From the sequence record DRR378314_109: a stretch of DNA of 22,898 bases; one strand, given 5' to 3'. Below, piece after piece: positions 2 through 20,136 of the stretch. A program made the position numbers and the translations under genes. The notes under the pieces were generated by a model. It was not told where the DNA came from. It was given only the letters and a program-made list of their open reading frames with translations, and ran no database searches. The stretch's first letter is position 1. The number at the start of each line of letters is the position of its first letter.

Positions 2-814
2 GCAGATGCCCGCAGGCGCAACGAGGTGCGCATCACCATTTCGTCCTCCATGGCAGAGCTTGCCGGGATGGAAGTGCAGCTTTCACAGCGCTACGGAATT
101 CAGGATGTCATTGTCTGTCCCTCAAACGAAGCCGTCCCAGACCCGACGCAATCCATCGCGGCTTCTGCCGGTGCCTATGTAAGTGGGATGATGCAACCCG
201 GTATGTCGGTTGGTGTCGGATGGGGGAAAACCCTTCATTCGATGTTGCAATTCATCGAAAGCCAGACCCTGAGCGATCTGAGTGTGGTGTCCCTGCTTGG
301 CGGGTTTTCGCACGTCCGGCATTTTAACCCGGCGGATTTCGCCTGGCGTTTTGCGGAGCTGTTCCAAGGGGAGGGGTATCTTGTCCCGGCGCCAGCGCTT
401 GTTGATAGCCCGGAAACAAGGCGCGCATTAATCGAACGCTGCGGGATTGGTGAGGTTTTTGCTAAAGCCCACAATCTTGATATGGTGTTGTTGTCGGTAG
501 GCGGAATTGCTCAGGGGGCGACCTCTTTTCAAACCGGTTATCTGACCGATGCCGAACGTGAGGATCTTAAAGCCGCCGGTGCCACGGGGGATCTATTATA
601 TAATTTCATCGATGTCGACGGGCGTTTGATCGACCATCCGGTGAACGACCGCACCATCTCGGTAAGTCTGGAACAGCTTGCAAATGCGAAGGCGCGGATC
701 ATCGTGTCCGGTGGCCCTGAAAAGGTCGAAGTGCTGCATGGTGCAATTGCAGCCATTCGCCCTTCCGCTCTGGTGACGGATGACGCCAGTGCCAGAACTC
801 TTCTGGCGATGTAA
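2..814 (+). CDS. SorC/DeoR-family sugar(-phosphate)-binding transcriptional regulator, 5'-truncated by the window edge
   Basis: The frame is open from base 2 (ADARRRNEVRITI, the end of the HTH region). Sugar-binding domain motifs: VGVGWGKTL, PAPALVDS, LLSVGGI, GATGDLL, SGGPEKVEVLHGAI, LVTD. Confidence 0.88.
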   Translation, partial: ADARRRNEVRITISSSMAELAGMEVQLSQRYGIQDVIVCPSNEAVPDPTQSIAASAGAYVSGMMQPGMSVGVGWGKTLHSMLQFIESQTLSDLSVVSLLGGFSHVRHFNPADFAWRFAELFQGEGYLVPAPALVDSPETRRALIERCGIGEVFAKAHNLDMVLLSVGGIAQGATSFQTGYLTDAEREDLKAAGATGDLLYNFIDVDGRLIDHPVNDRTISVSLEQLANAKARIIVSGGPEKVEVLHGAIAAIRPSALVTDDASARTLLAM

Positions 815-870
815 CAGTGCCAATTTGCTGTCGGGAGCGCGATACAATACTTGACCGAAACCCCGAATAG

Positions 871-901
871 GAACATTAGTATAGTAGCGAAACGATTGTT
901 C
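871..901. promoter_or_regulatory. Candidate SorC-family operator (GAACA-N21-TGTTC) upstream of the hypothetical gene pair
   Basis: GAACATTAGTATAGTAGCGAAACGATTGTTC, with a TTGACC -35-like hexamer at 851-856. Resembles the sites at 4046 and 11673. Confidence 0.5.
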
Positions 902-935
902 AGCACCCTCTAAAACAGAAACTAATGAGAGTTCG

Positions 936-1613
936 ATGATTTCGGGAACCCTGCCTATCAAAGACCTTCTGCGTGGGCTGCGCTCTGGCATGACGGCGGG
1001 GCGGGTTGCCATTGATCCCTTGAGCCGGGATTTCCCCGGACCTCTACGTGATGTTGTGGACGGTCTGGATATCATTGCCACACGGCTTGAGGCGACAACA
1101 TCACGTTTGGCCCATAGTATTCTGGATGATGGAGCAACGTCACGGAAAGGGTTCGGCTGGACCTTGCAAACGCTGGCAATGCACCCGAACGGCGCGACAA
1201 TCTTTGCGCAATTGGCCTACGGTGCCCTTGGTGCTGCATATTCACGATTTGCGCAACAACCCGCGCTGGTGAGCGAAACCCTCGCCGCACAGGCGTTTCA
1301 GGCCGCGATGAGTGCAACATCTGCGGATCGAAGCGCGCTGCCTGCTGAACTTCTTCTTCAACTGATAAGCACCGAAGTCATTCGTTCGGTGCCTTTGGCG
1401 ACTCTTTCACAGCAGAAAGACGATTCCGCCATACTTGCCTATACCGCTTTTGTGATCCTGCTCTGTGTGGAGCGCGCCTCCGAGAGTGAAGAAACTGATC
1501 TGCTTGATCTATGTTGCGACACTGCGCCGCTGATAGCGCGGAAATTCCGTTTTGACCCTGATGAACGTTCCGCTTTGCGTGCCGCGATCGCGGATTGCGC
1601 GCGCTTGATTTGA
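936..1613 (+). CDS. Hypothetical protein (225 aa, probably helical)
   Basis: Long ORF with GAGAG upstream of the ATG. It fills the gap between neighbours and is 12 bp from the next ORF. No recognised catalytic motif. Confidence 0.75.
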   Translation: MISGTLPIKDLLRGLRSGMTAGRVAIDPLSRDFPGPLRDVVDGLDIIATRLEATTSRLAHSILDDGATSRKGFGWTLQTLAMHPNGATIFAQLAYGALGAAYSRFAQQPALVSETLAAQAFQAAMSATSADRSALPAELLLQLISTEVIRSVPLATLSQQKDDSAILAYTAFVILLCVERASESEETDLLDLCCDTAPLIARKFRFDPDERSALRAAIADCARLI

Positions 1614-1625
1614 GAGGTTCCTGCC

Positions 1626-2831
1626 ATGACGCTTCCTGCCCCTGAACTCCTCCTGACGCCGAACACGCAAGTCAGACGTGCGGTTCGCAGGTTGCGCTGG
1701 TTTCGTCGTGCTTTTCTTGAACAGGTGGCGGTTATCTCCGAAGATTGCGGCATTCCCTTCGACGTCGATACCATTCGGCTGGCGGATGCCTTCCTTGAAT
1801 GGAGCGCCGCCTTCGAGCGTAAGAAACCAACATCCCGCGCGGACAAGCGCCGCTATGTTGATCATGTTTCCGGGTTGATGCTTGAGCAATTGCTGCGAAA
1901 GGCCCCTCTATCGGCCAGATGCGGGGACAAGACTCCAAACGATGCGACCCCTGCCCAATTCTGGCCAGAGGGCTATGCCTGCGTGGTCTTCTGTCTGAAC
2001 GTGCGTGCGGCTGTGCTGGCGCAAGATTTCGGAGAGCAGGTTGAAGATGCGCCCCAGATGGAGAGCCTGCGCGATTGGATGAGCTTTCGTGAAAACGTGG
2101 CGGAAACACCAGAAAACGCGATCAGTTTCCTTCAACATTTCGCGGGACTAAAGCCGGACTGGCAATTTCCCAGCCTGTTTCAACCATCGCCCCGTCAATC
2201 ACCGCCACAACTGACATTGGTTCACGCACCCAGCCAGCCTGTTCTGCAAACATTGCCTGCAGATCTTTCACTGGTCGTTTTCGATTTGAATGCGATTTCC
2301 AATAGCCGTGCACTGGTGGCTCAGGCATTGGCACATGTGCTGGGGCGCTACGGCTACACCCTGTCGGATGAATTGATCGATCAACCGCTTGCCGCAGCGA
2401 TGACATTTGTCGCATTGCGAAGTGGGAAGCTATGTCCGGGCAGTTTTACTGAATATTTCCGCAATGCCATGTCCGAAATATTTGCTGCTCAACTTCAACT
2501 ATCCCCGTTAGCCCAAGGTGTTTTGGCCGAGCTTTCAAGTAAAGGCGTGAAACTTCGCATTGCTGTAGACGATAGCAAAATATCTGTATCCGAGGTCGCA
2601 AACTTGCTTTCGCCAGATGGGCATATCGGCTTCTATGAAGCGCCAGAGCCTGAAGGGCGTATTGCATCCGGCAAGGCGAGGCTCTGGGTCAGCGCCGATG
2701 CCCCGCGGCTTCAATCCGCGCGCAAAAACGGGTTTCAAACACTCGGGATTGCAGATCAGGACGGGCGTAAGCCGGAATATTCGGACCAGACCATTCTGTC
2801 CCTGACGGAATTCCCGGAACTTCCCCGCTAG
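1626..2831 (+). CDS. Hypothetical protein: unknown N-terminal domain plus degenerate C-terminal HAD-IA-like domain
   Basis: GAGG RBS. A Pro/Gln-rich linker (FQPSPRQSPPQ) is followed by LVVFDLNAISNS (HAD motif-I-like) and RLQSARKNGFQTLGI...ILSLTEFPEL (HAD-IA-like C-terminus). Confidence 0.75.
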   Translation: MTLPAPELLLTPNTQVRRAVRRLRWFRRAFLEQVAVISEDCGIPFDVDTIRLADAFLEWSAAFERKKPTSRADKRRYVDHVSGLMLEQLLRKAPLSARCGDKTPNDATPAQFWPEGYACVVFCLNVRAAVLAQDFGEQVEDAPQMESLRDWMSFRENVAETPENAISFLQHFAGLKPDWQFPSLFQPSPRQSPPQLTLVHAPSQPVLQTLPADLSLVVFDLNAISNSRALVAQALAHVLGRYGYTLSDELIDQPLAAAMTFVALRSGKLCPGSFTEYFRNAMSEIFAAQLQLSPLAQGVLAELSSKGVKLRIAVDDSKISVSEVANLLSPDGHIGFYEAPEPEGRIASGKARLWVSADAPRLQSARKNGFQTLGIADQDGRKPEYSDQTILSLTEFPELPR

Positions 2832-2989
2832 TTAGTGGAAAGGCAGGTATTTTCCATTCGGGCGAAACAACTCGCGATCCCGCTTTAATGGGCTGAATTG
2901 AACGCATAAGCCAACTCAGACCGGTGTGAAGTATCAGTCAGGGTTGTGTCCGTCAGGGATTTACGGTCGATACCCCTGATGAACCCAGG

Positions 2990-3949
2990 CTATTCTAAAA
3001 GCTTACTTGCGGTTTCTGTATCGGTAACAAGTATTTCAGTTGTCACGGCCTTCAACGCAGCATGGATTGCTTCGACCTTGTGCCGCCCGCCCGCCGCCAG
3101 AACAACACGTGGAATGGCCGAAACTTCCGTTGGCGTAAGTGCCATGATCCGCGAGTTGATTTCATGATCAACCAATTGCCCGTCGGCATCGATGAAATAG
3201 CACAATATATTTGCAACAGCATTCTGCGCGCGCAGTTCTTCTGCGGTTGTTGCAGGCACGATACCGTAGTTGAACACAGTGGCAGTGGGTGCAATTTCTC
3301 CAACTGTCAAAAGCGCAAGGTCGGCCTTCTTTGCGCGTGCCCGCACTTCACCCAATAGCGGCTGGTCCCAAAGCCTTTGGCAGAGTTCGGCGCTATCGAC
3401 CAGAACGGGTGCTGTGATCTGATAGCTGTCCACACCAAGTCGGGTGGCCATGCTGGAAGCAACAATCGATGGGTTGATCCATTGCGAGTGGGGCAGGGAC
3501 CCGACAAGCCCGACAACAGTTGCATCATTCAATTCGCGCCGGTACATGAAGCTGAGACTTGAGTGAAGCGTCGCGCCACCGCCGACAGCGAGGGTCATAC
3601 CGTCAGTCATATTTGTGTTCAGGAAATTTGCGACAGCATGACCAATATAACGTTCCGTGTGCCGCGGATCGCGGGGCGTGGGTACAACAATCGCACTTTT
3701 GAGGCCCCATCGGTCCTCCAATTGGCGTTCAAGGGCGATTTGTTCCGAAGAGGCCGCATTGATTGTCGTGACAATGACATTTCGCTCTATGCTGGCGGCG
3801 AGCGACCGCACAACCTTGATACGGCTGACTTGTAACTCTTGCGCAATCGCTTCCTGTGTCATGCCTTCGACATGATACTGCCACGCAATTTTTACATCCA
3901 AGTCTGATGATGTCAGCGGGCCACGGGGGTCCCTGATTCGTGATGTCAT
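2990..3949 (-). CDS. SorC/DeoR-family transcriptional regulator
   Basis: N-terminal HTH IAWQYHVEGMTQEAIAQELQVSRIKVVRSL, plus LAVGGGATL, AAGGRHKVEAIHAAL and LVTD. Start at 3949 chosen for the AAGGGG upstream; 3979 is an alternative. Confidence 0.9.
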   Translation of the reverse strand: MTSRIRDPRGPLTSSDLDVKIAWQYHVEGMTQEAIAQELQVSRIKVVRSLAASIERNVIVTTINAASSEQIALERQLEDRWGLKSAIVVPTPRDPRHTERYIGHAVANFLNTNMTDGMTLAVGGGATLHSSLSFMYRRELNDATVVGLVGSLPHSQWINPSIVASSMATRLGVDSYQITAPVLVDSAELCQRLWDQPLLGEVRARAKKADLALLTVGEIAPTATVFNYGIVPATTAEELRAQNAVANILCYFIDADGQLVDHEINSRIMALTPTEVSAIPRVVLAAGGRHKVEAIHAALKAVTTEILVTDTETASKLLE

Positions 3950-4045
3950 CGTCGCCGGCCCCTTTGTCACGTCTGCCATGTCTTAATCTGTGCAGCAAAA
4001 AGTCTATAGGCTTCATTCCCAAATTCCCCACTTTTTGCAGAATTC

Positions 4046-4077
4046 GATCATTTGTAATTGACTAGTATCAAATGTTC
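4046..4077. promoter_or_regulatory. Candidate SorC-family operator overlapping the ABC-operon promoter
   Basis: GATCATTTG-N14-CAAATGTTC inverted repeat (8/9 match) containing a TTGACT -35-like hexamer at 4058-4063. Lies in the divergent regulator/ABC intergenic region. Confidence 0.65.
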
Positions 4078-4161
4078 GTGCTTCATCTTGCTTGTCTCAC
4101 TTAGACCCAAGAGGCAAAAAGGGCGGCGATGTGCTGCCGACGACAGTTGGAGGAATACCGA

Positions 4162-5154
4162 ATGACTGAAGACTTCAAACCGAAGACAGTACTTCTCGCG
4201 AGCACAATTATTGCCACGATGGCTTTTTCCAGTGCCGCTTTCGCCGAGAAGCTTGTTCTTTATACGTCGCAACCCGATGCTGATGCCGCTGCGACCGTCG
4301 CAGCATTCGAAGCGCAGAACCCCGACGCTGATGTCGAAGTGTTCCGCTCTGGCACCAGCGATCTGCTCAGCAAGCTGGCCGCGGAGTTCGCCGCCGGTAG
4401 CCCACAGCCGGATGTATTGTTGATTGCGGATGCCGTCAGCATGGAAGGTCTCAAGGCCGACGACCGCCTGATGGCCTATGCCGATGCCAACACCGAAGGT
4501 TTTGATCCCAACGCAATCGACCCCGATAAATTCTATTTCGGCAGCAAGCTGATCACCACCGGAATTGCCTACAATACGGGCGCAAGCGAGCAGCCGGAGC
4601 ATTGGTCCGATCTCACCGGTGACGCTTATAAAAACCTCGTCGTCATGCCGAGCCCGCTTTACTCCGGGGCCGCCGCCTTTCTGCTTTCAACCTTTGCAGA
4701 GCGTGAAGATCTGGGGTGGCAGTATTTCGAGGACATGCAGGCAAACGGTCTTTCCGCCGTACGTGGCAACGGCTCTGTATTGAAATCTGTGGCCACTGGT
4801 GAGAATGCCTATGGTATCCTTGTTGACTTCCTGGCCATGAACGCGATCAAAGATGGATCCCCGATCAAATTCGTCTTCCCCGAAGAAGGGGTGACAGCGG
4901 TAACCGAGCCAGTGGCCATCATGGCGACGGCTTCGAATGTCGAAGGGGCCAAGAAGTTCGTCGATTTTATTCTGTCTGATGAAGGGCAAAAACTTGCGCT
5001 TAGCCAAGGCTACCTGCCCGCAAAGGCCAGCGTCGGTACCCCTGACTGGATGCCTGAAGGTGTCGAGGTCAAGGTGATGGATGCCAATGTTGGCGAGATT
5101 GTCACAAAGATCGATGACAACAAAAAGCGTTTCTCAACGCTGTTTGGCGGATAA
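4162..5154 (+). CDS. ABC transporter substrate-binding protein (AfuA/FbpA-like)
   Basis: GGAGGA RBS before ATG 4162. Signal peptide ends in AFA-E. Motifs LVLYTS, PDVL, FVFPEEG, AKKFVDFILSDEGQ. Confidence 0.9.
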   Translation: MTEDFKPKTVLLASTIIATMAFSSAAFAEKLVLYTSQPDADAAATVAAFEAQNPDADVEVFRSGTSDLLSKLAAEFAAGSPQPDVLLIADAVSMEGLKADDRLMAYADANTEGFDPNAIDPDKFYFGSKLITTGIAYNTGASEQPEHWSDLTGDAYKNLVVMPSPLYSGAAAFLLSTFAEREDLGWQYFEDMQANGLSAVRGNGSVLKSVATGENAYGILVDFLAMNAIKDGSPIKFVFPEEGVTAVTEPVAIMATASNVEGAKKFVDFILSDEGQKLALSQGYLPAKASVGTPDWMPEGVEVKVMDANVGEIVTKIDDNKKRFSTLFGG

Positions 5155-5163
5155 GGCACGACA

Positions 5164-6867
5164 ATGCATCTGTCTGTAAGGGGCGGTCGGGGCCAGTCAA
5201 TGGCCCTGACAACGATGATCTTTGCCATCATCGCATTGTTTTCCCTCCTCCCCATGATCCGGCTTCTGCAAGAAGTCATTCTGCCCGGCGGCACGTTTTC
5301 GACGGAAGCGATCCGATCCGGTCTTGGCGACCCGGTTGTGTGGCGTGCGACGTGGAACACAATCGTGGTCGGGGTCGGTGGCACCGTTGTAGCTGTCCTT
5401 TTGGGTGTGGTTGTTTCAATCATCGTCACGCTGACCAACATTCGGATGACACAGACGTTGATCCTCTTCTTCGTCACCCCTTTGATGATCGCACCACAGG
5501 TAACAGCGCTTGCCTGGTTGCAACTATTCGGTCCTTCCAGCGCCTTTCTCAACGCTTTCGGTTTGGCCCCGCCACTGGGCACCCCAAACCCCTTGTATTC
5601 CGCCGGTGGCATCATTGCGCTTCTGGGGATACAATATGCGCCGCTGGTTTTTCTTATTCTGCGTGCTGGCCTGCGAAAGTTGCCGCGAGAACTGGTTGAG
5701 GCGGCACAGGCCGGTGGGGCAGGGCCTTTTCGCGTCATTGGCACCATCGTATTGCCGCTTATGACCCCCTCAATCGTAGGGGCGGCTGCCCTGACTTTCG
5801 TGTCATGTGTCGGCAACTTTGGCATCCCCGCGTTTCTCGGTATTCCGGCCAACTATCTGGTTCTGCCAACCTTGATCTTTCAACGCCTTGCAGGTGGTGG
5901 ACCGGCTGTGCTGTCCGAGGTGGCCTACCTTTCAGCGCTCATTGGCGTGCTGGCTATGGCAGGTATCGTGCTGCAGGATTACATCAGCCGCCGCCGCGAC
6001 TTCCGCATCACCACAACTTCGCTTCCGATTGACCGCTACAATCTCGGCATCTGGCGGATTCCGATGGAAGCGGCGATGTGGCTGCTCATTGCTGTGATCT
6101 TGGTTTTGCCGATGTGCGGGTTGATCCTTACCTCTTTGGTACGGGGCTACGGTGTTGTTCTAAGCGCGGATACCGTGACGCTTGAGAACTATCGTTTCAT
6201 CCTGTTTGAACACACCGCCGCCAGACGGGCCTTCGTAAACAGCCTTATGTTGTCAGTCACCGCAGCTGTCTTTGCCGTCTTTGTCGCGGTGCCTGTTGGT
6301 TATTTGATCGCCTGGGGCAAGCAGAAGTGGATCAAATGGCTGAACTTCGCAATCGAGCTGCCCTATGCGCTGCCCGGTGTGGTCTTGGCAATTGCATCGC
6401 TTTTACTGTTTCTGAAACCGATTCCGGTCATTGGTATCCAGATTTACAACACGGTCTGGATTATCCTGTTTGCCTATCTGGCACGGTTTCTGGTGCTGGC
6501 AATCCGCCCTACCGTCAACGGCTACGCCCAGCTTGACCGTACCTTGGAAGAGGCCGCAGAAATTGCCGGGGCAAGCCTCTTCATGCGGTTGCGCACCATT
6601 ATCTTCCCATTGGTGGCACCCGCAGCGATGGCCGGCGGCCTGTTGATCTTCATGACCGCATTAAGCGAACTGACCGTTTCTGCGCTGCTCTGGTCGTCGG
6701 GCTCTGAAACGATTGGTGTCGTTATCTTCTCGTTCGAGCAAGGCGGGGATTCCAAATACGCCTCCGCTCTTTCCGCGGTGATCGTTGCGGTCACCTTCCT
6801 CATTATGCTGGGTGTGAACACCTTTGCACATAAACTTCCAGACGGAGTGCTGCCATGGCGGGACTAA
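5164..6867 (+). CDS. ABC transporter permease (fused double-domain, FbpB/AfuB type)
   Basis: Many hydrophobic segments and two EAA loops (ELVEAAQAGGA, TLEEAAEIAGA). Confidence 0.92.
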   Translation: MHLSVRGGRGQSMALTTMIFAIIALFSLLPMIRLLQEVILPGGTFSTEAIRSGLGDPVVWRATWNTIVVGVGGTVVAVLLGVVVSIIVTLTNIRMTQTLILFFVTPLMIAPQVTALAWLQLFGPSSAFLNAFGLAPPLGTPNPLYSAGGIIALLGIQYAPLVFLILRAGLRKLPRELVEAAQAGGAGPFRVIGTIVLPLMTPSIVGAAALTFVSCVGNFGIPAFLGIPANYLVLPTLIFQRLAGGGPAVLSEVAYLSALIGVLAMAGIVLQDYISRRRDFRITTTSLPIDRYNLGIWRIPMEAAMWLLIAVILVLPMCGLILTSLVRGYGVVLSADTVTLENYRFILFEHTAARRAFVNSLMLSVTAAVFAVFVAVPVGYLIAWGKQKWIKWLNFAIELPYALPGVVLAIASLLLFLKPIPVIGIQIYNTVWIILFAYLARFLVLAIRPTVNGYAQLDRTLEEAAEIAGASLFMRLRTIIFPLVAPAAMAGGLLIFMTALSELTVSALLWSSGSETIGVVIFSFEQGGDSKYASALSAVIVAVTFLIMLGVNTFAHKLPDGVLPWRD

Positions 6868-7934
6868 CAATTCGAAACCTGTCCAAAGTCTTTGGCGAGT
6901 TCGAGGCACTGAAAAATGTGTCAATTACAGTAAATTCAGGAGAGTTTCTGGCTGTGCTCGGCCCCTCTGGCTGCGGCAAAACCACCCTTCTGCGGATGAT
7001 AGCCGGGTTTGAAAATGTGAATGCCGGCGAAATCGACATCGCAGGCCAGCTCGTATCCCAGCCCGGCAAAGAGGTCCCGCCAAATGAACGGCGCATCGGG
7101 ATTGTGTTTCAGAACTACGCGCTCTGGCCGCATATGACCGTGGCCGAGAACATCGGATATTCCCTTCGGGTGGCGAAAGTCGAGGCATCTGAAGCCAAAC
7201 GCAGGGTCGATGAGGCTCTTGCTCTGGTTAATCTGGATGGCATGGGAGATCGTGCCCCCGCCAACCTTTCAGGTGGGCAACGTCAACGCGTAGCGCTTGC
7301 GCGCTGCCTTGTGGCAGAACCCAAACTGGTTCTGTTTGACGAACCGCTGGCAAACCTTGATGTGCATCTGCGCGCATCCATGGAAGACGAGTTTGCCGCC
7401 TTCCACGAACGCACCGGAACAACGATTGTTTACATCACGCACGATCAGGCCGAAGCCATGGCGCTGGCGGACCGGATTGCGGTGATGGATCATGGTGTGT
7501 TGATGCAACTTGATACGCCGGAAACCATCTATCACCGCCCGGCGAACGAGATGGTCGCGTCCTTCATCTCTCAGGGCATGGTGATGCCGGTGACTGTGAA
7601 CAGTAAAGAGGCTGACGGCCATTGCGATGCAACCTTGCTTGGTCAACCAATCCGGCTGAACTGTTCCGCCGGGGACGGGCCGCGGCAAGGGGCAAAGGTT
7701 TGCTGCCGTGCAGAACATGTGCGTGTTGCCGAACCTGACGGCGAAGGTATCGACGGGTACATCAAACGGGTCGTTTACCAAGGTGGCGCTGCCCGCATTG
7801 AGTTCGTACCGGATGCCGAAAAAGAAACCTCCATCCAATTTGACCAACCGGACCCGCAGCCCTTTGTGACTGGGGATCGCGCACGGATTCAACTGACCGG
7901 TGGATGGTTGATCCCTGCACAAAGTGCGGCCTGA
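6855..7934 (+). CDS. ABC transporter ATP-binding protein (FbpC/PotA-like)
   Basis: Walker A GPSGCGKT, signature LSGGQRQR, Walker B VLFDEP, H-loop ITHD. Overlaps the permease by 13 nt. Confidence 0.95.
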   Translation: MAGLTIRNLSKVFGEFEALKNVSITVNSGEFLAVLGPSGCGKTTLLRMIAGFENVNAGEIDIAGQLVSQPGKEVPPNERRIGIVFQNYALWPHMTVAENIGYSLRVAKVEASEAKRRVDEALALVNLDGMGDRAPANLSGGQRQRVALARCLVAEPKLVLFDEPLANLDVHLRASMEDEFAAFHERTGTTIVYITHDQAEAMALADRIAVMDHGVLMQLDTPETIYHRPANEMVASFISQGMVMPVTVNSKEADGHCDATLLGQPIRLNCSAGDGPRQGAKVCCRAEHVRVAEPDGEGIDGYIKRVVYQGGAARIEFVPDAEKETSIQFDQPDPQPFVTGDRARIQLTGGWLIPAQSAA

Positions 7935-9085
7935 TGCAAAGACTACACCTACAAGGCGGCTTTGGAGAAAAGGGCCGCACCAGCGTTCTGATCGATGATG
8001 GTGAAAGCCGCGTGATGCTGGATGCAGGCATCAAAGTTGGGGCGGCACCCAAGGACTATCACCCTCAACTTGCCTGCGCTGCCAGTGAGATCGACGCGCT
8101 TTTCATCACCCATGCCCACGAGGATCACATTGGCGCACTCTGCTGGTTGATCGGCCAAGGCTTTACCGGGCCGGTTTTCATGACGCCCACGACGCGTGCT
8201 GAAATGAACGCCACCCTTGATCAATATGCCCATGTTTCTGACCTTGCCCGTTTTCCATCCTCAAACGCCATGATAGAGCTTTTTTTGCCGGGTGACACAC
8301 TTTCCTTTGCAAAGCAAAAGATCAAAACCGGTCATACCGGTCATGTTGCGGGCGGCGTCTGGTTTTCGGTGGAGAGCGGCGGTAAACGGACATTGTATTG
8401 TGGGGATGTGGTGCCCGAAAGCGCGGTCTTTCCGATGACTGCTATGCCAGAATGCGACATGATGTTGCTGGATTGCTCGTACGGCGATGATGGCATCCCG
8501 GCCTCTGAAAGAGCGAAGCAGATTGTTGAATGGGTTCTGGCGCGGCCAGAAGGGGCGGTTTTACCAACACCCCTTTCAGGCCGCTCATTGGAGCTGTTGG
8601 CGATCCTGCCAAGGCCGCTGGCGATTGCAGACGTGATGTATGAGCCGCTCAAAGCGCAAATCGCCGACCCCTCGCTGCTGAGACCAGGTGCCGCGGAACG
8701 CATCACTGCTCGGCTTGACACCGCGCGCCGCTGGCATCCGGGCAGCCCATTGCCTGCCTGTCCGCTTTTGGTGCATGACGGAATGGGCTCGGCTGGTCCC
8801 GCGACACTGGCCCTGGAAATGGCAGAACAGAAGGGGCATCCTGTTCTTCTTTCAGGCCATCTTCCCGAAGGTTCTCCTGCGCACCGGATGCGCGAACAGG
8901 GCCGCGCCGATTGGTTTCGCCTGCCAACCCATCCAACCTTACCGCAGAACAAGTTGCTTTGGGAAAACTCAGGTCGGCCACGACTATTGGGGCATTCAAG
9001 TGAAGCAAAGTTGTTGAACGCGATGCAACAGGCTCTACCCGCTTTGGTTACAACAGCCGTGACCGGCGACAGCATAGAATTTTGA
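7934..9085 (+). CDS. Metallo-beta-lactamase-fold hydrolase with beta-CASP-like motifs
   Basis: TGATG overlap with the ATPase stop. Motifs LDAG, THAHEDHIG, GHVAGG, YCGD, DCSYG, GRSLELL, DGMG, SGHLPEGS, PTHP, LLGH. Confidence 0.85.
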   Translation: MQRLHLQGGFGEKGRTSVLIDDGESRVMLDAGIKVGAAPKDYHPQLACAASEIDALFITHAHEDHIGALCWLIGQGFTGPVFMTPTTRAEMNATLDQYAHVSDLARFPSSNAMIELFLPGDTLSFAKQKIKTGHTGHVAGGVWFSVESGGKRTLYCGDVVPESAVFPMTAMPECDMMLLDCSYGDDGIPASERAKQIVEWVLARPEGAVLPTPLSGRSLELLAILPRPLAIADVMYEPLKAQIADPSLLRPGAAERITARLDTARRWHPGSPLPACPLLVHDGMGSAGPATLALEMAEQKGHPVLLSGHLPEGSPAHRMREQGRADWFRLPTHPTLPQNKLLWENSGRPRLLGHSSEAKLLNAMQQALPALVTTAVTGDSIEF

Positions 9086-9096
9086 CAGGACATAAT

Positions 9097-9837
9097 ATGA
9101 GAATCTTGATCGCCAATGATGATGGTATCGATGCCCCCGGACTGGCGCTGTTGGAACGGGCTGCGCTTAAAATCAGCGATGATGTCTGGGTGATCGCGCC
9201 CTCTGCCAAACGCACTGCGGCGGGCAATTCGCTGACCATTGCGCGCCCGCTCACCATGACCCGTTTGGCAGAACAGCGGTATTCCTGCTCTGGCACCCCT
9301 GCTGATTGTGTGCTGACAGCAATGACATGGTTGTTCAAAGACGGTAAGCGCCCCGATCTGGTCCTGTCGGGGGTCAACGACGGGCGCAATGTGGGCGAGG
9401 ATATCGCCTATTCCGGGACATTGGGTATCGCCCGCGAAGCAACTTTTTGGGGCATTCCCGCGATCGGCTTTTCCCGCGTGAAAAACGCGGAAGTTGCTGA
9501 AAGTGACGCGGATTACCTGACCAAGATCATTCAAGAGCTTTGGATACGCCGTCCTGATTGGGTGGCCGAAGGTGAATGGCTATCGATTAATTTGCCCTCG
9601 AAATTACCAGCTGCTTTGCGCGCCGCACGTATTGGACGCGACAAGGTTGGCCTGATTAGCGAGACCCTAAAGGAAGATGGCGATGTGACCGAGATCATGG
9701 TGCCCCGTGGTCGGCAGGACAGTTCGACACCGGGTGATGAAAACACGCTGATGGCTGAGGGTTTTGCAGCGATCAATCGCCTGAAATGGGCGGGGGAGTC
9801 ACCCTTGCCAAAGGCGCTGCTTGATGCGCTGAGCTGA
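9097..9837 (+). CDS. surE: SurE-family 5'/3'-nucleotidase
   Basis: MRILIANDDGIDAPGL, GTPADCV, PDLVLSGVNDGRN, YSGT. AGGA RBS before ATG 9097. Confidence 0.92.
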   Translation: MRILIANDDGIDAPGLALLERAALKISDDVWVIAPSAKRTAAGNSLTIARPLTMTRLAEQRYSCSGTPADCVLTAMTWLFKDGKRPDLVLSGVNDGRNVGEDIAYSGTLGIAREATFWGIPAIGFSRVKNAEVAESDADYLTKIIQELWIRRPDWVAEGEWLSINLPSKLPAALRAARIGRDKVGLISETLKEDGDVTEIMVPRGRQDSSTPGDENTLMAEGFAAINRLKWAGESPLPKALLDALS

Positions 9838-9865
9838 TCACAGCAAATTAAACTGTCCCAAGACT

Positions 9866-9892
9866 GGGCTGGCCTGTGTCGCCAGCCCTTTT
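9866..9892 (+). terminator. Rho-independent terminator after surE
   Basis: GGGCTGGC-N7-GCCAGCCC followed by TTTT, between convergent genes. Confidence 0.75.
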
Positions 9893-9899
9893 GGTCTTC

Positions 9900-11579
9900 C
9901 TACCCTGGTTTCGGTTTTTTGCCCGGCTTGATCAAACGGCTGCCCCGCAGCAACCCTTCTTCCTCCAGTACCGGATAGGCAATCGCGGCAAGCAGACCAT
10001 TGATCTGTTTCAGATCCCGTACGGTGTCGAGGTGGATCGAACTGGTTTCAATGCTTTCTTCAGTCTGTTGGCGCAAACGATTGAAGTGGCGTTGACGTGT
10101 TTCCCTTTCCAGTTCACGCAGCCGGTCTTTTGCCGAGATCACCCGTCGGGCGGTATCTGCATCGCCATTGATCAGAAGATTAAAGGAAAGGCGGGCATTG
10201 CGCATGACCGCATTATGAAAATCAAGCAGCTCGCGCCAGCCTTCCGCGGTAAACTCAACCTGCCGTTCCATCTTCTTTTGCACGTGCGGGATCAGGTTTC
10301 GCACGATCACATCTCCCGCTTGTTCGAGTTTGATACACACCTCCAACAGGTTCTGGCATTGATGCGCCTGTTCTACGGTCATTTCTTTTTCAGTGATCCG
10401 GGCAAGATAAAGTTTGATGGCATTCTGTCGTTTATCAATGCGATCATCTTGCTGGATAAGTTCCTCAATGGCCTCGGGTGTCGGATCTTCAAAGATCTCC
10501 ATGATGCGGCTTAACATGCTGTCGATGGTCTCGCACATCCGCACCGCTTCACGGGTGGCATTTGCCAAGGCCTGTTTGGGCCGGTCCAGCGCTTCAGGGT
10601 CCAGTGCACTGATTTCTTCTGGCGCGCTGACGGCCGATGTTCCGGCGCTTAAATCCGCCAAACCATGCGAGATGCGCCATGTCAGCCCAGAGAGCGGGAG
10701 GCCAGCAATTAATATAAGAAGATTAAAGGCGATATGTCCGTTGATGATCTGTTGATCAGGCGCCGATCCAAGAAACCCGAAATCCGGCTGCATCATGGCA
10801 ATTGCCGCAAGTAACAGCACAGAACCGAGCCCTCTCATAAGCAAATTCGCCAAGGGGACCGCACGGTATGCCGGCCCCGCGCTGCGGGTGAGTATCGGCG
10901 CGATCAGGGATGATCCAAGGTTCACCCCAAGCACCATGACCACCCCCAATTCGCCCGGCAACACCCCCTGAGACGCAAGTGCCGCCAGTAGAAGTATCGC
11001 GGCGACGCTAGAGTGCAAAAGATAGGTAACACCCGCCGCAATCAGGAAAGAGGTGATAGGATCTCCGCTTAGAAAGTTCAGTATCGTTGGCAAAGACTTG
11101 CTGTCACGCAAAGGACCGGCGGCAGTGCTAAGCAGTTCAAGAGAAAGCAGAATCATCGCAATGCCGATCAGGCTGCGCCCCAACTCATGCCAGGGGCGTC
11201 TGTCGGTTTTCAGATAGAGCCCGGCCCCGATCAACATCAGTACCGGAATGAGCAAAGTCATATCATAGCTCAGAACCTTCGCTACGACCGCTGACCCCAG
11301 TTCACCACCGCGCACAATGATCACGCCAGCCACGCCCGACACAAGCCCCATTCCCGTGAATGAACTGATCAACAGGGTCACAGCGGTCGAGCTTTGTAAT
11401 CCGATCGCCATGACGAAGCCGAACAGCATCGCCGCGAAAGGGTGGTCAACGCGCCTGCGCAGACCACTGCGCAGCTGGCGACCAAAAGCACGCTCCACCC
11501 CGGTTCTTACCAGGCGCGTTGCCCACAAAAGCATGGCAATGGCACCGGCCATATGCAGGAAGAAAACTGAGCTTGTCAT
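9900..11579 (-). CDS. Na/Pi-cotransporter family protein with C-terminal PhoU-like domains (YjbB-like)
   Basis: Repeated LQSSTAV / LHSSVAA motifs, GGELGS / GVNLGS, hydrophobic N-half. Helical soluble C-terminus (DDRIDKR, LEQAGD, ETSSIHLD). Confidence 0.9.
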   Translation of the reverse strand: MTSSVFFLHMAGAIAMLLWATRLVRTGVERAFGRQLRSGLRRRVDHPFAAMLFGFVMAIGLQSSTAVTLLISSFTGMGLVSGVAGVIIVRGGELGSAVVAKVLSYDMTLLIPVLMLIGAGLYLKTDRRPWHELGRSLIGIAMILLSLELLSTAAGPLRDSKSLPTILNFLSGDPITSFLIAAGVTYLLHSSVAAILLLAALASQGVLPGELGVVMVLGVNLGSSLIAPILTRSAGPAYRAVPLANLLMRGLGSVLLLAAIAMMQPDFGFLGSAPDQQIINGHIAFNLLILIAGLPLSGLTWRISHGLADLSAGTSAVSAPEEISALDPEALDRPKQALANATREAVRMCETIDSMLSRIMEIFEDPTPEAIEELIQQDDRIDKRQNAIKLYLARITEKEMTVEQAHQCQNLLEVCIKLEQAGDVIVRNLIPHVQKKMERQVEFTAEGWRELLDFHNAVMRNARLSFNLLINGDADTARRVISAKDRLRELERETRQRHFNRLRQQTEESIETSSIHLDTVRDLKQINGLLAAIAYPVLEEEGLLRGSRLIKPGKKPKPG

Positions 11580-11672
11580 AGGTCGCCTTTTCGCCGCCGC
11601 TGCTGGTGGAAATCTGGATCATTGGTCATCGAGCCGAAAAGGGCGCTACGCTCCTTACGCACACCCGAAACT

Positions 11673-11704
11673 ATACATAAGTAAAAACTAAATTACAAAT
11701 GATC
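11673..11704 (-). promoter_or_regulatory. Candidate SorC-family operator upstream of the Na/Pi gene
   Basis: Minus strand reads GATCATTTGTAATTTAGTTTTTACTTATGTAT. The first 14 nt are identical to 4046-4059. Confidence 0.65.
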
Positions 11705-11957: not shown

Positions 11958-13526
11958 TTAGCCGAGGCTTTGCGTCATACCCCGCCCGACAAGATTGATG
12001 TCATCAGGGTTGATAAGGTCAGATCCCGTCCAGCCAGAAAGATCATATTCCCCCATACATTGGGCAACAAAACCTTGCAGGTTGGAGAGATCCCCATTCG
12101 CTGTAGCGTTCAACAAAGTCTCGATGCGAACGTTTTCGTAATTGCCCGCATAGTTGCGTTCATACAGTTCATGCCGGCCACCAAATTCCGTGCCAATCGC
12201 ATCCCATAGCAGTTTCAGCAGCTTCACCCTGTCGATGGCAGCATAACCGTTGGAACCACGCACAAAACGATCAAGATAGGGACGGATCGCCTCGCTTTCG
12301 AAATCCGCCGCCGAGGAGGGCAGATAGATCAGGCCGGACGCCACATGCCGTTCGATCAACTCTTTAATCCGACCATAGGCCATGGGGGCAAAAACCCGAT
12401 AGGCGAGACCGACGTTCGTGTTGGGCAAGTTAAATCCATCCGTGCCCTCCCATGGGACTGGCGATTTGACCATCGCATCAGAAAGCCCATGGAAGAGATT
12501 GCGCCAGGCCAGCACTTCACCCACCGCCGTCTGCACCCCGCGGAAGTCCTTTGATCCGGTGGCTTCGACCGCCATGGAAAACAGACCAGCGATGAAATCA
12601 AGCTTGACCGACAAGCGTGTCAGACCGTGCAGGGTAAAACGCGGCACAAAGCCTGAAGCAGGGAAGAACTGGTTAATCTTGTCCGTGTCCCCATAGACGA
12701 AGATATTCTCCCAAGGGACCAGAACCTTGTCGAACACAAGGATCGAGTCATTCTCATCCATCCGCGAGGAAAGCGGATAGTCAAAGGGAGACCCAGTGGC
12801 GGCCGCATTGAACTCGTAAGAAGAGCGCGCGATCAGCTTGACCCCTTCAGCGTCCATCGGCGCGGTAAAGATCAGCGCAAATTCCTTGTCCTTAACCGGA
12901 ATGCCATAGTGAGCGATAAAGTTGTAATGGGTCAGCGCCGATCCCGTTGCCACGACCTTTGCACCAGAGACGATAAGCCCGGCGTCGGTTTCTTTTTCAA
13001 CATGCATGAATACATCGCGGACCTCTTCAATCGCTCGGTCGCGATCAATAGGCGGATTGACGATAGCGTGGTTCCAGTAATCCAGTTTGTTCTGTGTCTT
13101 GTTGTACCAGTTCAACGCATTGCCGGCATATTCTCCGTAAAACTCTGAGTTGGCGCCCAAAGTACCGAGAAATGCCGCTTTGTAATCCGGCGAGCGGCCC
13201 ATCCAGCCATAGGACACTTTTTGCAGCTCAGCCACGGCATCGCGGCTTTTGATCAGGTCTTCAGATGTCTTGGACCCCAGGAAAAACGGATGTGTGATAT
13301 TGCCCGACCCATTGTCTGCCATCACGCCGATCTGGTCTTTGCGGTCATGAAATTTATCATACCAGCGTGCAACCATACGTGCAGAGTTGCGAAAGGCCGG
13401 ATGTTTGGTGACGTCTTTTACACGTTCGCCATAGATATAGATCTCGCGGCTGTCCTGAATGCTCTCCAAGAACTCTTGGCCTTTGAAAACCTCGGTTTTA
13501 TCGCCGGGCGTTGCATCTTTGGGCAT
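11958..13526 (-). CDS. Two-component FADH2-dependent aromatic monooxygenase, oxygenase subunit (HpaB/PheA1/NphA1 family)
   Basis: [74 protein letters not shown] before ATG 13526. Confidence 0.93.
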
Positions 13527-13606
13527 GGGTCTTTCTCCTCCTGAAAGTGACGAACGGCACAGCGCCGACACGTGCTAATGGCGTTCAAACTGCCCCCGAA
13601 CTCGGC

Positions 13607-13644
13607 AATCGCGCTAGGTATCAACGCATACCAAACGGGGTATC
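13607..13644. promoter_or_regulatory. Possible LysR (CatR/BenM-like) binding region in the divergent promoter
   Basis: ATAC-N8-GTAT at 13628-13643, with GGTATC repeated 22 bp apart (13617, 13639). The canonical spacer is N7, so the match is imperfect. Confidence 0.4.
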
Positions 13645-13709
13645 GCCTGAGAGTGATGGACAGCGTTAACCTGAAAACACCCAGCCAGCTTGAGGAGGAG
13701 CCCGCGGTC

Positions 13710-14285
13710 ATGTTTGATACAACCCAACCCAAATTTTGGCATGGTGAGGTGCCCCGACTTGACGCTAGTGTCGTGACACTTGGTGCATTTGATGGTGTAC
13801 ATTCAGGACATCAGACACTGATATCCGGCGCGATCAAACAGGCGCAGGCACGCGGTGTACCTTCTGTTGTTTGCACTTTTGATCCGCCCCCCAAGGTTTT
13901 TTTTGGTCGCGCTGCCCAGCTATGTTCAATGTCGCAGAAACTTGCGCGTATTTCGGCACTTGGCCCGGATCACGTTGTGGTTTTCTCCTTTGACGAAACT
14001 CTTCGCGCCCTGTCACCTGCCGCTTTTATGGACAAGCTGGCCCTGCTGCGGCCCTACCGAATTTGTGTAGGTGGTGATTTTCGATTTGGGGCGAAACAGG
14101 CGGGTGACGTGCACCTGCTTGGCACCCGCTTTGATGTGCGGGTGCAGCCGCCGGTCTGCTGCGCCGATGGTGAAGTTGTTTCTTCAACCCGCATTCGTGG
14201 CCTGCTGGAGCAGGGCCTGACGACAGCGGCCGCAACACTTTTGCGCCCGGCACTCAAGCCAGAGATTTATCATGAAAACACTTGA
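13710..14285 (+). CDS. Stand-alone FMN adenylyltransferase (FAD synthetase N-terminal domain), no riboflavin kinase domain
   Basis: GAGGAGG RBS. Motifs TLGAFDGVHSGHQ, TFDPPP, VGGDFRFG, VSSTRIR. The ORF ends at 191 aa without the kinase GFPTAN motif. Confidence 0.85.
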   Translation: MFDTTQPKFWHGEVPRLDASVVTLGAFDGVHSGHQTLISGAIKQAQARGVPSVVCTFDPPPKVFFGRAAQLCSMSQKLARISALGPDHVVVFSFDETLRALSPAAFMDKLALLRPYRICVGGDFRFGAKQAGDVHLLGTRFDVRVQPPVCCADGEVVSSTRIRGLLEQGLTTAAATLLRPALKPEIYHENT

Positions 14286-14793
14286 TCCACGCGCCCTGCG
14301 CGATGCCTGCGGTCTGTTCAGTACCGGCGTCAATGTTATTGCCACGCGCCATGAAGATGGTGATCACGGGATGACGGCCAATGCCTTTATGTCAATCTCA
14401 CTCGACCCGCCATTGATCTCGGTCTCAATCGGTGAACGTGCCAAGATCCTGCCTCATCTGCAACGGACCGGGCGCTTTTCAGTCAGCACTCTTGCCGAAG
14501 GCAGTGCGGAGCTTGCCTGGCATTTTGCGGGCCGGCCTGTCGAAAGTCTGACGAACCCCTTCGATGAACTTGACGGCTTGCCCGTGATCCGCAGTGCCTT
14601 GGCCGCTTATGCATGTGACATCGTGAACGAGGTCGAAGCAGGGGATCATACGATTTTCATCGGGCAGGTCAGCCAGTTGATCACAGATCCCGGTGCGCGA
14701 CCGCTTATTTTTTACAAAGGCCGTTTCGGTGCCGTGGCGGCACAAGCCCCCGCGCCGGAACTATGTGATCCAGTCGCTGAAGCCATCTGGTGA
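14272..14793 (+). CDS. Flavin reductase (HpaC/PheA2 family)
   Basis: LRDACGLFSTGVNVI, GMTANAFMSISLDPPL, AGDHTIFIGQV, PLIFYKGRF. Confidence 0.93.
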   Translation: MKTLDPRALRDACGLFSTGVNVIATRHEDGDHGMTANAFMSISLDPPLISVSIGERAKILPHLQRTGRFSVSTLAEGSAELAWHFAGRPVESLTNPFDELDGLPVIRSALAAYACDIVNEVEAGDHTIFIGQVSQLITDPGARPLIFYKGRFGAVAAQAPAPELCDPVAEAIW

Positions 14794-14833
14794 CGCCGGG
14801 CAACAAACCAATACTAAAACGGAGGAGAAGACC

Positions 14834-15703: not shown

Positions 15704-15713
15704 CATGACATTA

Positions 15714-15736
15714 GCGGGCGCCCAATGGGCGTCCGC
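15714..15736 (+). other. GC-rich intercistronic hairpin
   Basis: GCGGGCGCCC-AAT-GGGCGTCCGC (one G-U pair) between the dioxygenase and cycloisomerase genes. No U-tract. Confidence 0.5.
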
Positions 15737-15757
15737 ATCAGATTAAAGGAGAATTTA

Positions 15758-16936: not shown

Positions 16937-16986
16937 AACTTGTATTTGCGGGGGGAGAGCCGATGATACTTGACGGGAGGGGACAT

Positions 16987-17889: not shown

Positions 17890-17895
17890 GTGCAG

Positions 17896-17930
17896 AATGG
17901 CCGTGGAGCAGGTTATGCTCCACGGCCATT
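17896..17930. terminator. Probable bidirectional terminator between convergent genes
   Basis: Perfect 15-bp stem AATGGCCGTGGAGCA-GGTTA-TGCTCCACGGCCATT. Confidence 0.75.
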
Positions 17931-17945
17931 AAAGGTGACCTGGTA

Positions 17946-20069: not shown

Positions 20070-20136
20070 TATATGCACGGAGTTTGTAGCAATGTCCGAA
20101 ATGACCCGTTACCCGATATCGCAGGAGGATTTGGAT

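Follow-up and report, generated by a model that had tools for sequence, protein, structure and literature searches.

The stretch of DNA analysed in this study (22,898 nucleotides of sequence record DRR378314_109, hereafter the window) carries in positions 2 to 11,704 the genes for an ATP-binding cassette (ABC) importer, a metallo-beta-lactamase-type (MBL) hydrolase with a predicted beta-CASP fold and a SurE-family protein, arranged as one array and accompanied by two SorC-type regulators (SorC1 and SorC2), two proteins termed orf225 and orf401 and a cotransporter for sodium and inorganic phosphate (Pi) with PhoU domains. With a probability of roughly 0.55, this array is a substrate-inducible, SorC2-repressed import-hydrolysis operon, the substrate of which most likely belongs to the methylerythritol-phosphate family, with 2-C-methyl-D-erythritol 2,4-cyclodiphosphate (MEcDP) as the leading candidate. 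The reading draws on gene content, on the conservation of the array, on modelled folds and catalytic residues, on a palindromic operator, on the linkage to a second gene system and on gene fusions.

Gene content of the window

Gene content was taken from a listing of open reading frames (ORFs) and from Pfam and NCBIfam scans of the window. The features are given with coordinates, strand and description.

2..814, plus strand: SorC1, SorC-family regulator (PF04198, E 1.7e-56), 5' end cut by the window edge
936..1613, plus strand: orf225 (X-prime), without Pfam family
1626..2831, plus strand: orf401 (Y-prime-HAD), without above-cut-off Pfam match, modelled with a helical N-domain and a HAD-IA-fold C-domain
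2990..3979, minus strand: SorC2 (PF04198, E 3.7e-55), divergent putative repressor of the ABC-MBL-SurE operon
4046..4077, unstranded: putative operator/promoter palindrome, GATCATTTG-N14-CAAATGTTC around a TTGAC -35 box
4129..5154, plus strand: AfuA-like substrate-binding protein (SBP) of cluster D, probable start at 4162
5164..6867, plus strand: fused two-domain ABC permease with two BPD_transp_1 stretches
6855..7934, plus strand: ABC ATPase with TOBE domain (PF00005, PF08402)
7934..9085, plus strand: MBL hydrolase with predicted beta-CASP fold, 383 amino acids from the ATG at 7934 (long ORF from 7904)
9097..9837, plus strand: SurE-family protein (PF01975; ORF from 9082)
9866..9888, unstranded: terminator-like hairpin, 8-bp stem with 7 G-C pairs, then a T-run
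9900..11579, minus strand: Na/Pi-cotransporter with two PhoU domains (PF02690 twice, PF01895 twice)

The scans agree for every one of the ten genes that a first-pass annotation of the window had named and placed. That annotation had also described the five genes from SBP to surE as tightly coupled and as convergent with the Na/Pi-PhoU gene, and both descriptions hold. The SBP and permease genes are separated by 9 bp and the permease and ATPase genes overlap by 13 bp in the ORF listing. The likely start of the MBL hydrolase, the ATG at 7934, has one base in common with the ATPase stop codon (TGATG), and its homologues of 383 amino acids span 97% of the long ORF. The likely SurE start (ATG at 9097) lies 11 bp 3' of the MBL stop codon, and the probable SBP start at 4162 precedes a signal-peptide-like stretch. 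Between the convergent surE and Na/Pi-PhoU genes, the G+C-rich hairpin with its T-run is common to both.

Conservation of the core array

Eleven loci including the window were compared, originating from Rhodobacterales, Phyllobacteriaceae plasmids and two metagenome contigs (among them L001 from Frigidibacter sp. ROC022, L081 from a N. thuwali plasmid, L086 from Nitratireductor OM-1 and L121, a single metagenome contig). The ATPase, MBL and SurE genes are contiguous and co-directional in all 11 loci holding an MBL orthologue. The SBP is present in each of the ten loci whose contig extends far enough, and the permease is 65-95% identical across loci. Since this core arrangement is conserved, a chance juxtaposition of the ABC, MBL and SurE genes was rejected. 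The doubt raised in the first-pass annotation, that the genes might not co-occur elsewhere, is dispelled by the neighbourhood comparison it had called for, in which the core array recurs in two alphaproteobacterial orders and on two metagenome contigs.

The MBL orthologue was found at full length in one of the 80 genome-contig loci kept (L001, 78% identical), in two of the 80 metagenome loci kept, in 11 of 72,556 plasmid records (Nitratireductor, Aminobacter and Phyllobacterium) and in 4 of the 301 genomes drawn from the family to which L001 belongs. A class-level sample of 401 genomes contained it only once, in the centre genome itself, and it was absent from all 113 genomes searched in the genus of L073. 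Homologous proteins form 120 listed clusters with 50-98% identity, many of them named from Mesorhizobium and other Phyllobacteriaceae.

A SorC2-type regulator is divergent from and directly 5' of the SBP gene in 8 of the 10 assessable loci; in L121 the regulator heads a longer array, and L092 is without a regulator there. The Na/Pi-PhoU gene is found in 5 of the 11 loci (window, L081, L085, L086 and L092), in L085 co-directional and 55 bp after surE. As a side observation, a hypothetical protein of about 122 amino acids without Pfam match is encoded tail-to-tail with sorC2 in all four Phyllobacteriaceae plasmids (L081 7311-7679, L084 4520-4888, L085 4755-5120 and L086 4620-4994) and is absent from the Rhodobacterales loci.

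The ABC importer

The solved chains nearest to the SBP are 4R72-4R75 (AfuA, E 1.5e-18), 8X1A, 6WCE (P5PA, a pyridoxal phosphate (PLP) binder) and a 2-aminoethylphosphonate (AEP) binder. According to the available text of the AfuA report (PMC4546632), 4R72-75 represent AfuA in its apo form and with glucose 6-phosphate (G6P), fructose 6-phosphate (F6P) and sedoheptulose 7-phosphate (S7P), AfuABC transports sugar phosphates and not iron, AfuA was itself misannotated as an 'iron' binder, and the ligand is contacted by Ser37 and Thr150 (phosphate) and by His205, Asp206 and Glu229 (hexose). These contacts were mapped onto the window SBP via a HMMER alignment of 70 bits. Ser37 corresponds to the invariant Thr76 and is the only one of the five conserved in kind; Thr150 corresponds to Ala181, adjoining the invariant Ser179, while His205, Asp206 and Glu229 correspond to Ala236, Met237 and Val258, respectively. 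Judged by these residues, the SBP has the appearance of a protein that binds some phosphorylated compound other than a hexose phosphate.

PhnS2, PhnU2 and PhnT2 of the AEP importer were the best NCBIfam models for the transporter, PhnS2 for the SBP, yet all scored far below their cut-offs (137 vs 392.75, 151.7 vs 593.25 and 318.9 vs 457.7). A ferric ATPase model reached 275.9 (cut-off 496), and polyamine equivalogs were likewise far below their cut-offs. No adjacent Tyr-Tyr pair, the iron-ligand motif of FbpABC-type importers, was noticed by eye in the aligned region of the SBP. Binding of Fe3+ or polyamines, which the first-pass annotation had named as a finding that would speak against its proposal, is not indicated by the sequence, the nearest proteins of which are AfuA and P5PA. 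The importer resembles AfuABC of Actinobacillus/Citrobacter in its cluster-D SBP, its fused two-domain permease with ATPase and its 'iron' label, RefSeq naming the cluster permease 'iron ABC transporter permease'. It differs in the replacement of the hexose-reading residues, in its translational coupling to a pair of hydrolases and in being controlled by a putative SorC repressor. AfuABC delivers intact hexose phosphates, unlike the import with hydrolysis proposed here.

The MBL hydrolase

The structure model of the MBL hydrolase, built from a 39-sequence alignment (pLDDT 93.5, pTM 0.91), was matched by Foldseek to Ysh1, TTHA0252 and CPSF73 over the full length (TMq 0.80-0.83). As modelled, the protein has a complete beta-CASP fold, that of a binuclear metallo-hydrolase. 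The MBL motifs 1-4 (D40, H70-A-H-E-D-H75, H147 and D168) are invariant in the 39 sequences, as are D190, H319, H343 and H364. The beta-CASP motif A is acidic, motif B a His and motif C a His or Val; D190, H343 and H364 stand at positions resembling these three motifs and may correspond to them. None of the Beta-Casp and RMMBL models of Pfam was matched even at E values up to 5, where only Lactamase_B-type models and a faint Apyc1 match appeared. The beta-CASP RNases (TTHA0252, CPSF73/Ysh1 and RNase J) share the full-length fold and motifs 1-4 with the window protein, in which an acidic residue and two His may take the places of motifs A, B and C; it differs from them in being about 50 residues shorter and in lacking both C-terminal/KH domains and the family-specific Pfam matches. 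Some homologues are labelled as PhnP-type 'phosphoribosyl 1,2-cyclic phosphodiesterase'. This family was rejected: PhnP is a short MBL protein without beta-CASP insert, and the window protein has the full insert.

No signal peptide and no extra domains were detected in the MBL hydrolase; without a signal peptide, hydrolysis would follow import and take place in the cytoplasm. The enzyme is proposed to be a phosphodiesterase or a ring-opening enzyme, and we know of no characterised beta-CASP enzyme that has a small-molecule import operon as its context.

SurE and the Na/Pi-PhoU transporter

The SurE-family protein scored well above the PF01975 cut-off (161.3 vs 22.1 bits) and borderline for TIGR00087 (136.2 vs 135.1); other SurE equivalogs stayed below their cut-offs, and the match is confined to residues 6-189. 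SurE is a nucleotidase with NDDG and SGxN as metal-binding/catalytic motifs. The motifs N12-D13-D14-G15, S96-G-V-N99 and Y110-S-G-T113 are invariant in all five cluster SurE proteins. Three of the four genomes with the MBL orthologue have a second SurE copy, the fourth being fragmentary, and the MBL-negative genome G612 has one copy. By sequence, the cluster SurE appears to be a dedicated second copy with intact catalytic motifs.

The Na/Pi-PhoU protein scored 104.7 with NF037997 (cut-off 50). YjbB of E. coli and Salmonella shares this architecture of two Na_Pi_cotrans plus two PhoU domains. Likeness to YjbB is thus one of domain content, and the window transporter differs in being linked to a putative Pi-releasing operon. 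The transporter is probably a YjbB-type accessory Pi handler that exports Pi, and released Pi would leave the cell by this way because YjbB was reported to promote Pi export (PMC7980370, available text). That the Pi is handled by this transporter had been suggested before; the gene is present and YjbB-type, but it is found in fewer than half of the loci and export is likelier than uptake.

SorC regulators and a shared operator

Both regulators match the Sugar-bind domain PF04198. The DeoR equivalog scored 165 for SorC2 and 161 for SorC1 (cut-off 420), and scores of 125 and 85 were obtained with the LsrR equivalog (cut-off 486). From these scores, SorC1 and SorC2 are assigned to the SorC family and not to DeoR or LsrR orthologues. 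SorC1 is 49% identical to the regulator ending an operon described below in L001.

In the spacer between sorC2 and the SBP gene, the palindrome GATCATTTG-N14-CAAATGTTC overlaps the -35 box and is the sole match in the window. With up to three mismatches allowed, 5 of 9 loci carry it, at a distance of 51-116 bp upstream of the SBP start, and a degenerate form can be seen by eye in 8 of 9; the background amounts to 51 matches in 111 other loci (1.62 Mb). Its position over the -35 box marks it as a putative SorC2 operator of the repressor type. The same architecture occurs at the promoters of the genes encoding a reductoisomerase-like enzyme (DRL, see below). A composite operator, GAWCAT-N-TTGAC-N-CAAAWGWTC, gave 11 matches (7 distinct) in 3.6 Mb from 120 loci, both strands counted. 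These are located at SBP promoters (window, L001 and L084), at DRL promoters (L001, L117 and L109) and at a PfkB-SorC promoter (L113), and nothing else in the 3.6 Mb scanned was matched.

A further conserved spacer lies upstream of orf225 (window 815-935; L001 14017-14386) and reads CTTGACCGAA...GAACATTAGTAT...GAAACGATTGTTC. It carries GAACA/TGTTC half-sites and may be a SorC1 site, since these half-sites resemble the SBP and DRL operators.

Linkage to a DRL-AcoABC system

In L001 and L092, a SorC1-type regulator ends an operon encoding DRL (also termed DXR-II; PF21135), E1alpha, E1beta and AcoC, which abuts the MBL-SurE cluster. AcoC consists of lipoyl, E3-binding and alpha/beta-hydrolase parts (NF011457, 354 vs cut-off 307). 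DRL matches the solved chains 3UPL/3UPY, which we take to be the Brucella deoxyxylulose 5-phosphate (DXP) reductoisomerase-like enzyme, over its full length (E 8.8e-183, about two-thirds identical as read from the alignment). DRL performs the reaction of DXP reductoisomerase (DXR; PMC11192765, available text), and is known only as a biosynthetic DXR substitute, strains with both DXR types having been noted (PMC3847144, available text). The words 'acetoin' and 'genomic context' do not occur in the available text of PMC3847144. Canonical DXR is encoded alongside DRL in 4 of the 5 genomes tested, where DRL is therefore an extra enzyme. The cluster-linked DRL resembles known DXR-II in its full-length match to 3UPL and in PF21135; in contrast to known DXR-II, its gene shares an operon with those for acetoin-dehydrogenase-type E1/E2 and a SorC regulator, and the genomes concerned encode canonical DXR as well. 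This context suggests that DRL here runs in the reverse, catabolic direction.

The DRL and MBL-SurE systems are adjacent in L001, L092 and L121 and have a common plasmid island in Aminobacter. DRL orthologues with at least 62% identity are encoded in 20 of the 301 family genomes, including all four MBL-positive ones (Fisher p = 1.4e-5, or 7e-4 without the partial G677 copy, computed with genome relatedness ignored). The metagenome contig L121 carries a single co-directional array headed by a divergent SorC gene and composed of DRL, E1alpha, E1beta, a 79-aa lipoyl protein, SBP, permease, ATPase, MBL and SurE, with E2 reduced to this lipoyl-domain protein. The array is flanked by ispD-ispF upstream and by ispG 186 bp downstream (178-1370 and 12113-13471), with NCBIfam scores of 206.9 vs 181.3, 207.3 vs 116.45 and 455.6 vs 345 for ispD, ispF and ispG, respectively. 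In the MBL-negative genome G612, the only strong IspD of the genome is encoded beside the operon pair described in the next paragraph.

E1 genes adjoin DRL in 8 of 11 DRL loci fetched. In the loci bearing Aco genes, a divergent operon encodes an SBP_bac_1 or CUT2-type ABC system, a PfkB kinase and two proteins termed X and Y. This operon pair, ABC-PfkB-X-Y and DRL-AcoA-AcoB-AcoC-SorC (hereafter the base pathway; L117 2321-9075, L112 1579-9128, L111 1295-9156 and L113 752-16683), occurs in about 20 of the 301 Rhodobacteraceae-family genomes and is apparently undescribed. L108 and L113 additionally encode a Zn-dependent alcohol dehydrogenase (Zn-ADH) and a GlpD-like dehydrogenase in the base operon. 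On the Aminobacter and N. thuwali plasmids, DRL-Aco is contiguous with genes for Y, a HAD protein, GutM, a glucitol-type phosphotransferase system (PTS; IIC, IIB and IIA), PtsP and a SorC1-type regulator, the PTS replacing the ABC system and PfkB kinase of Rhodobacterales. The sorbitol PTS is said to transport 2-C-methyl-D-erythritol in Salmonella, according to the title of Testa et al. 2004 as cited in PMC3994034. In N. thuwali (L119 18546-26009), a deoC-aldehyde dehydrogenase-RbsD-CUT2 ABC cluster adjoins DRL.

The X and Y protein families

The first-pass annotation had grouped SorC1 and the two orphan proteins orf225 and orf401 with the proposed system. They are located beside the operon, but are paralogues of components of the neighbouring base pathway. 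No Pfam or NCBIfam model matched orf225, which has 14 homologue clusters and is related to protein X as encoded in L117, L112 and L108, with BLASTP E values of 1e-5 to 1e-6. By these matches, orf225 appears to be a distant paralogue of X, the protein encoded after the PfkB kinase and before Y. For orf401, an AlphaFold model (pLDDT 80.5) predicts a helical N-domain (approximately residues 16-172) and a HAD-IA-fold C-domain; residues 210-400 align with 2hsz (Z 16.0, rmsd 3.2, 191 residues), while HAD_2 scored 16.1 bits (cut-off 23.8). The HAD motif I (DxD) of orf401 is degenerate (F219-D220-L221-N222), and its second position is N, D, A, C or E among homologues. The N-domain had no fold match in whole-model searches, whose listed matches were those of the HAD domain; by sequence it shares 33-47% identity with Y proteins that stand alone in other loci and measure about 205-240 aa. 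In Aminobacter and N. thuwali, Y is followed by a separate HAD gene with intact DxD. ESM Atlas searches with orf225 and the orf401 N-domain returned only unnamed clusters (scores 0.78-0.93) and no usable family.

A Y profile detected 214 representatives at E <=0.001 among 1.84 billion proteins. These include Y-HAD fusions with significant HAD_2 matches (P0150 and P0155) and X-Y fusions (P0158, P0166 and P0176), whose N-halves matched the X profile with E values of 3.8e-27, 3.5e-31 and 3.4e-21; P0159 is a Y protein fused to a faint ROK-like region (E 0.0011). Because of the X-Y fusion proteins, X and Y are predicted to function as one unit; Pfam contains a family for neither of them. The X profile gave no significant match (E >=0.1) to the Phyllobacteriaceae hypotheticals of 255-257 aa or to the 122-aa protein. 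A 257-aa protein occupies the X position beside Y in L120.

Proposed mechanism

All catalytic steps given below are inferred, as are the identity of the substrate, the way in which flux runs and the export of Pi. The operon would be induced by its substrate and repressed by SorC2 in its absence. The AfuA-like ABC transporter would import a phosphorylated small molecule, the MBL hydrolase would act in the cytoplasm and open a disubstituted phosphate, be it a phosphodiester or a cyclic diphosphate, and the dedicated SurE would remove the resulting phosphomonoester. The product would either enter the co-regulated polyol-phosphate route of the same genomes or re-enter the pathway of methylerythritol 4-phosphate (MEP). 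Released Pi would be handled by the YjbB-type transporter and probably be exported. The orf225 and orf401 proteins, as paralogues of the X-Y(-HAD) unit, would act together.

In MEcDP, each phosphate is disubstituted, so that a diesterase-type enzyme (MBL) followed by a monoesterase (SurE) should be needed. Being a methyl-ketone acyloin, DXP is of the type that an acetoin-dehydrogenase E1 would be expected to cleave, and the base pathway is therefore read as a route from methylerythritol to acetyl-CoA and glyceraldehyde 3-phosphate (GAP). In this route, methylerythritol would be taken up by the ABC system and phosphorylated by the kinase, or taken up by the PTS, to give MEP; DRL would work in reverse from MEP to DXP, and AcoABC would split DXP into acetyl-CoA and GAP. 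According to the available text of a review (PMC11192765), plants as well as microbes export MEcDP, which is a stable compound not cleaved by alkaline phosphatase, and its entry to and exit from cells are among the open questions listed there. Tentatively, the operon might be the first system dedicated to uptake and dismantling of MEcDP itself, a stress metabolite, the MBL hydrolase having been recruited from nucleases to a small molecule and opening the ring, and SurE removing the 2-phosphate to yield MEP, which could be reused by IspD or burned by reversed DXR-II and Aco. On an equally speculative footing, the MEcDP system and the methylerythritol uptake operon might together form an undescribed catabolic or salvage branch of the MEP pathway in plant- and alga-associated alphaproteobacteria.

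The first-pass annotation had proposed import of a phosphodiester, its cleavage and subsequent dephosphorylation. This order fits the beta-CASP fold and the intact SurE, but the substrate, there any phosphodiester, is narrowed here to the methylerythritol-phosphate family by the DRL match, the PTS and the ispDF and ispG flanks.

Several points weigh against the proposed substrate and route. To our knowledge, all characterised beta-CASP enzymes are nucleases, and the pair of beta-CASP protein and SurE, taken alone, points to nucleic-acid fragments. The AfuA residue mapping depends on an alignment of 70 bits, the composite operator pattern was written after both promoter sets had been inspected, and relatedness does not enter the co-occurrence test. 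The flanks of L121 could equally reflect a biosynthetic supercluster or salvage into biosynthesis rather than catabolism. Three of the 11 DRL loci (L115, L116 and L118) have no E1 genes beside DRL, which can therefore be simply biosynthetic. No DRL is present within the examined stretch of L081, L085, L086, L090 and L091, nor on the Phyllobacterium and Nitratireductor OM-1 plasmids, the search in these two strains having covered the plasmids. Finally, the simple scheme offers no role for X, Y or the HAD domain.

Alternative explanations

Import of another polyol or sugar phosphodiester, e.g. an opine-like diester resembling agrocinopine, a piece of teichoic acid or of a glycerophosphodiester, or a phosphate ester of a tetritol, with DRL-Aco acting on a skeleton other than methylerythritol, is considered unlikely, even though its logic of import, diesterase and monoesterase is identical. 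The plasmid location in Phyllobacteriaceae, the GlpD-like and Zn-ADH genes of L108 and L113, which are also known from tetritol pathways, the IMPase or histidine-phosphatase genes beside the cluster in L092 and L090, and the activity of IspD-like enzymes on ribitol phosphate (NCBIfam list) would suit such a substrate. It is less compatible with a DRL about two-thirds identical to a solved DXP-reductoisomerase-like enzyme, with bona fide ispD, ispF and ispG around the L121 array, and with the replacement of ABC system and kinase in two plasmids by a glucitol-type PTS, the reported methylerythritol carrier. The acc operon for agrocinopine catabolism on Agrobacterium Ti plasmids and the Ugp/UgpQ system for the use of glycerophosphodiesters combine an ABC phosphodiester importer, a cytoplasmic phosphodiesterase and then a phosphatase. 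With these systems the window operon shares the import-diesterase-phosphatase logic, a sugar-phosphate-type repressor and the occurrence on plasmids of plant-associated alphaproteobacteria; it differs in its SBP class and in its enzymes, a beta-CASP MBL and SurE standing where those systems have GDPD-type diesterases and an IMPase-type phosphatase, and no GDPD or IMPase domain was detected by the Pfam scan of the window.

Somewhat less probable still is the use of nucleic-acid fragments, according to which oligonucleotides, dinucleotides or cyclic nucleotides would be imported, cut to mononucleotides by the beta-CASP enzyme and converted by SurE to nucleoside and Pi, with the SorC regulators sensing a (deoxy)ribose phosphate as does DeoR of B. 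subtilis. All nearest sequence and fold relatives of the MBL hydrolase are RNases, the motif-C-like H364 is a His, the state of the RNA type, SurE scores as a 5'/3'-nucleotidase, the best NCBIfam regulator match is the B. subtilis-type DeoR and the deoC cluster adjoins DRL in N. thuwali. However, the SBP is a cluster-D protein of the small-ligand kind with AfuA and P5PA as its nearest relatives, the Beta-Casp and RMMBL models are not matched at E values up to 5, and the DeoR score of 165 is far below its cut-off of 420. The 11 loci have no recurrent gene for a nucleoside phosphorylase, hydrolase or deaminase, and the DRL-AcoABC linkage, the shared operator and the ispDF/ispG flanks would be left unexplained.

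The first-pass annotation had regarded the genes as a scavenging system, which is doubtful. A Pho-regulon function in phosphorus scavenging under phosphate starvation, with the Na/Pi transporter importing phosphate, would explain the location of putative Pi-releasing enzymes beside a Pi transporter and of phnCDE 1 kb beyond this transporter in Nitratireductor OM-1, yet it is very improbable. No Pho box was matched with up to three mismatches in any intergenic region of the window, the consensus being that of E. coli; the sole three-mismatch match falls within a coding region, and matches of this quality arose in 82 of 100 shuffles. Instead, the promoter carries a SorC-type palindrome of the repressor kind that is conserved across orders, and the transporter is absent from 6 of the 11 loci and resembles YjbB, reported to promote Pi export (PMC7980370, available text). 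An importer for Fe3+, polyamines or AEP merely adjoining unrelated hydrolases, as the RefSeq 'iron' label and the best-scoring models PhnS2, PhnU2 and PhnT2 might imply, can be dismissed almost entirely, given Phn scores far below the cut-offs, translationally coupled MBL and SurE genes behind the transporter in 11 of 11 loci and the former 'iron' misannotation of AfuA itself (PMC4546632, available text).

Novelty and implications

A literature search, with most subscription journals outside its reach, retrieved no description of the operon or of a beta-CASP enzyme in a metabolite-import operon, and no catabolic route for methylerythritol or MEcDP. This agrees with the first-pass annotation, in which the cluster was not recognised as a named pathway. 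While other systems share the import-diesterase-phosphatase design, novelty lies in the enzyme families, in the regulon and in the likely substrate. If the methylerythritol-phosphate reading is true, extracellular MEcDP and methylerythritol gain a fate, a beta-CASP 'nuclease' works on a metabolite, DXR-II has a catabolic role beside canonical DXR and the second SurE copy is assigned a job. Even without a specific substrate, a conserved and testable operon is defined together with its putative operator and regulators. Two new protein families, X and Y, are defined as well, with fusions between the two or with HAD domains known from other organisms, and the RefSeq annotation of these genes as 'iron ABC transporter' is corrected.

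Neighbouring genes

Several genes in the vicinity of the clusters may be mentioned. In L090 (11948-16822, genome G410), a histidine-phosphatase gene is convergent with surE and followed by a second Fe3+/AfuA-type ABC transporter, whose ATPase, permease and SBP are 39%, 27% and 31% identical to those of the window; it may be another organophosphate import module. Upstream of the cluster on the N. thuwali plasmid (L081 3780-7134), anmK, murQ and a RES/Xre toxin-antitoxin pair are located. In Nitratireductor OM-1 (L086 11917-14292), a DUF6543 gene lies between surE and the Na/Pi-PhoU gene, with the phnCDE phosphonate transporter genes within 1 kb beyond. Downstream of 11.7 kb, the window contains an aromatic-catabolism cluster unrelated to the ABC-MBL-SurE operon (11958-22720), encoding an HpaB-type monooxygenase (minus strand), an FAD-synthetase-like ORF, a flavin reductase, an intradiol dioxygenase, a muconate cycloisomerase, a LysR regulator, an alpha/beta hydrolase, an IclR regulator, two CoA-transferase subunits and a thiolase of the beta-ketoadipate type.

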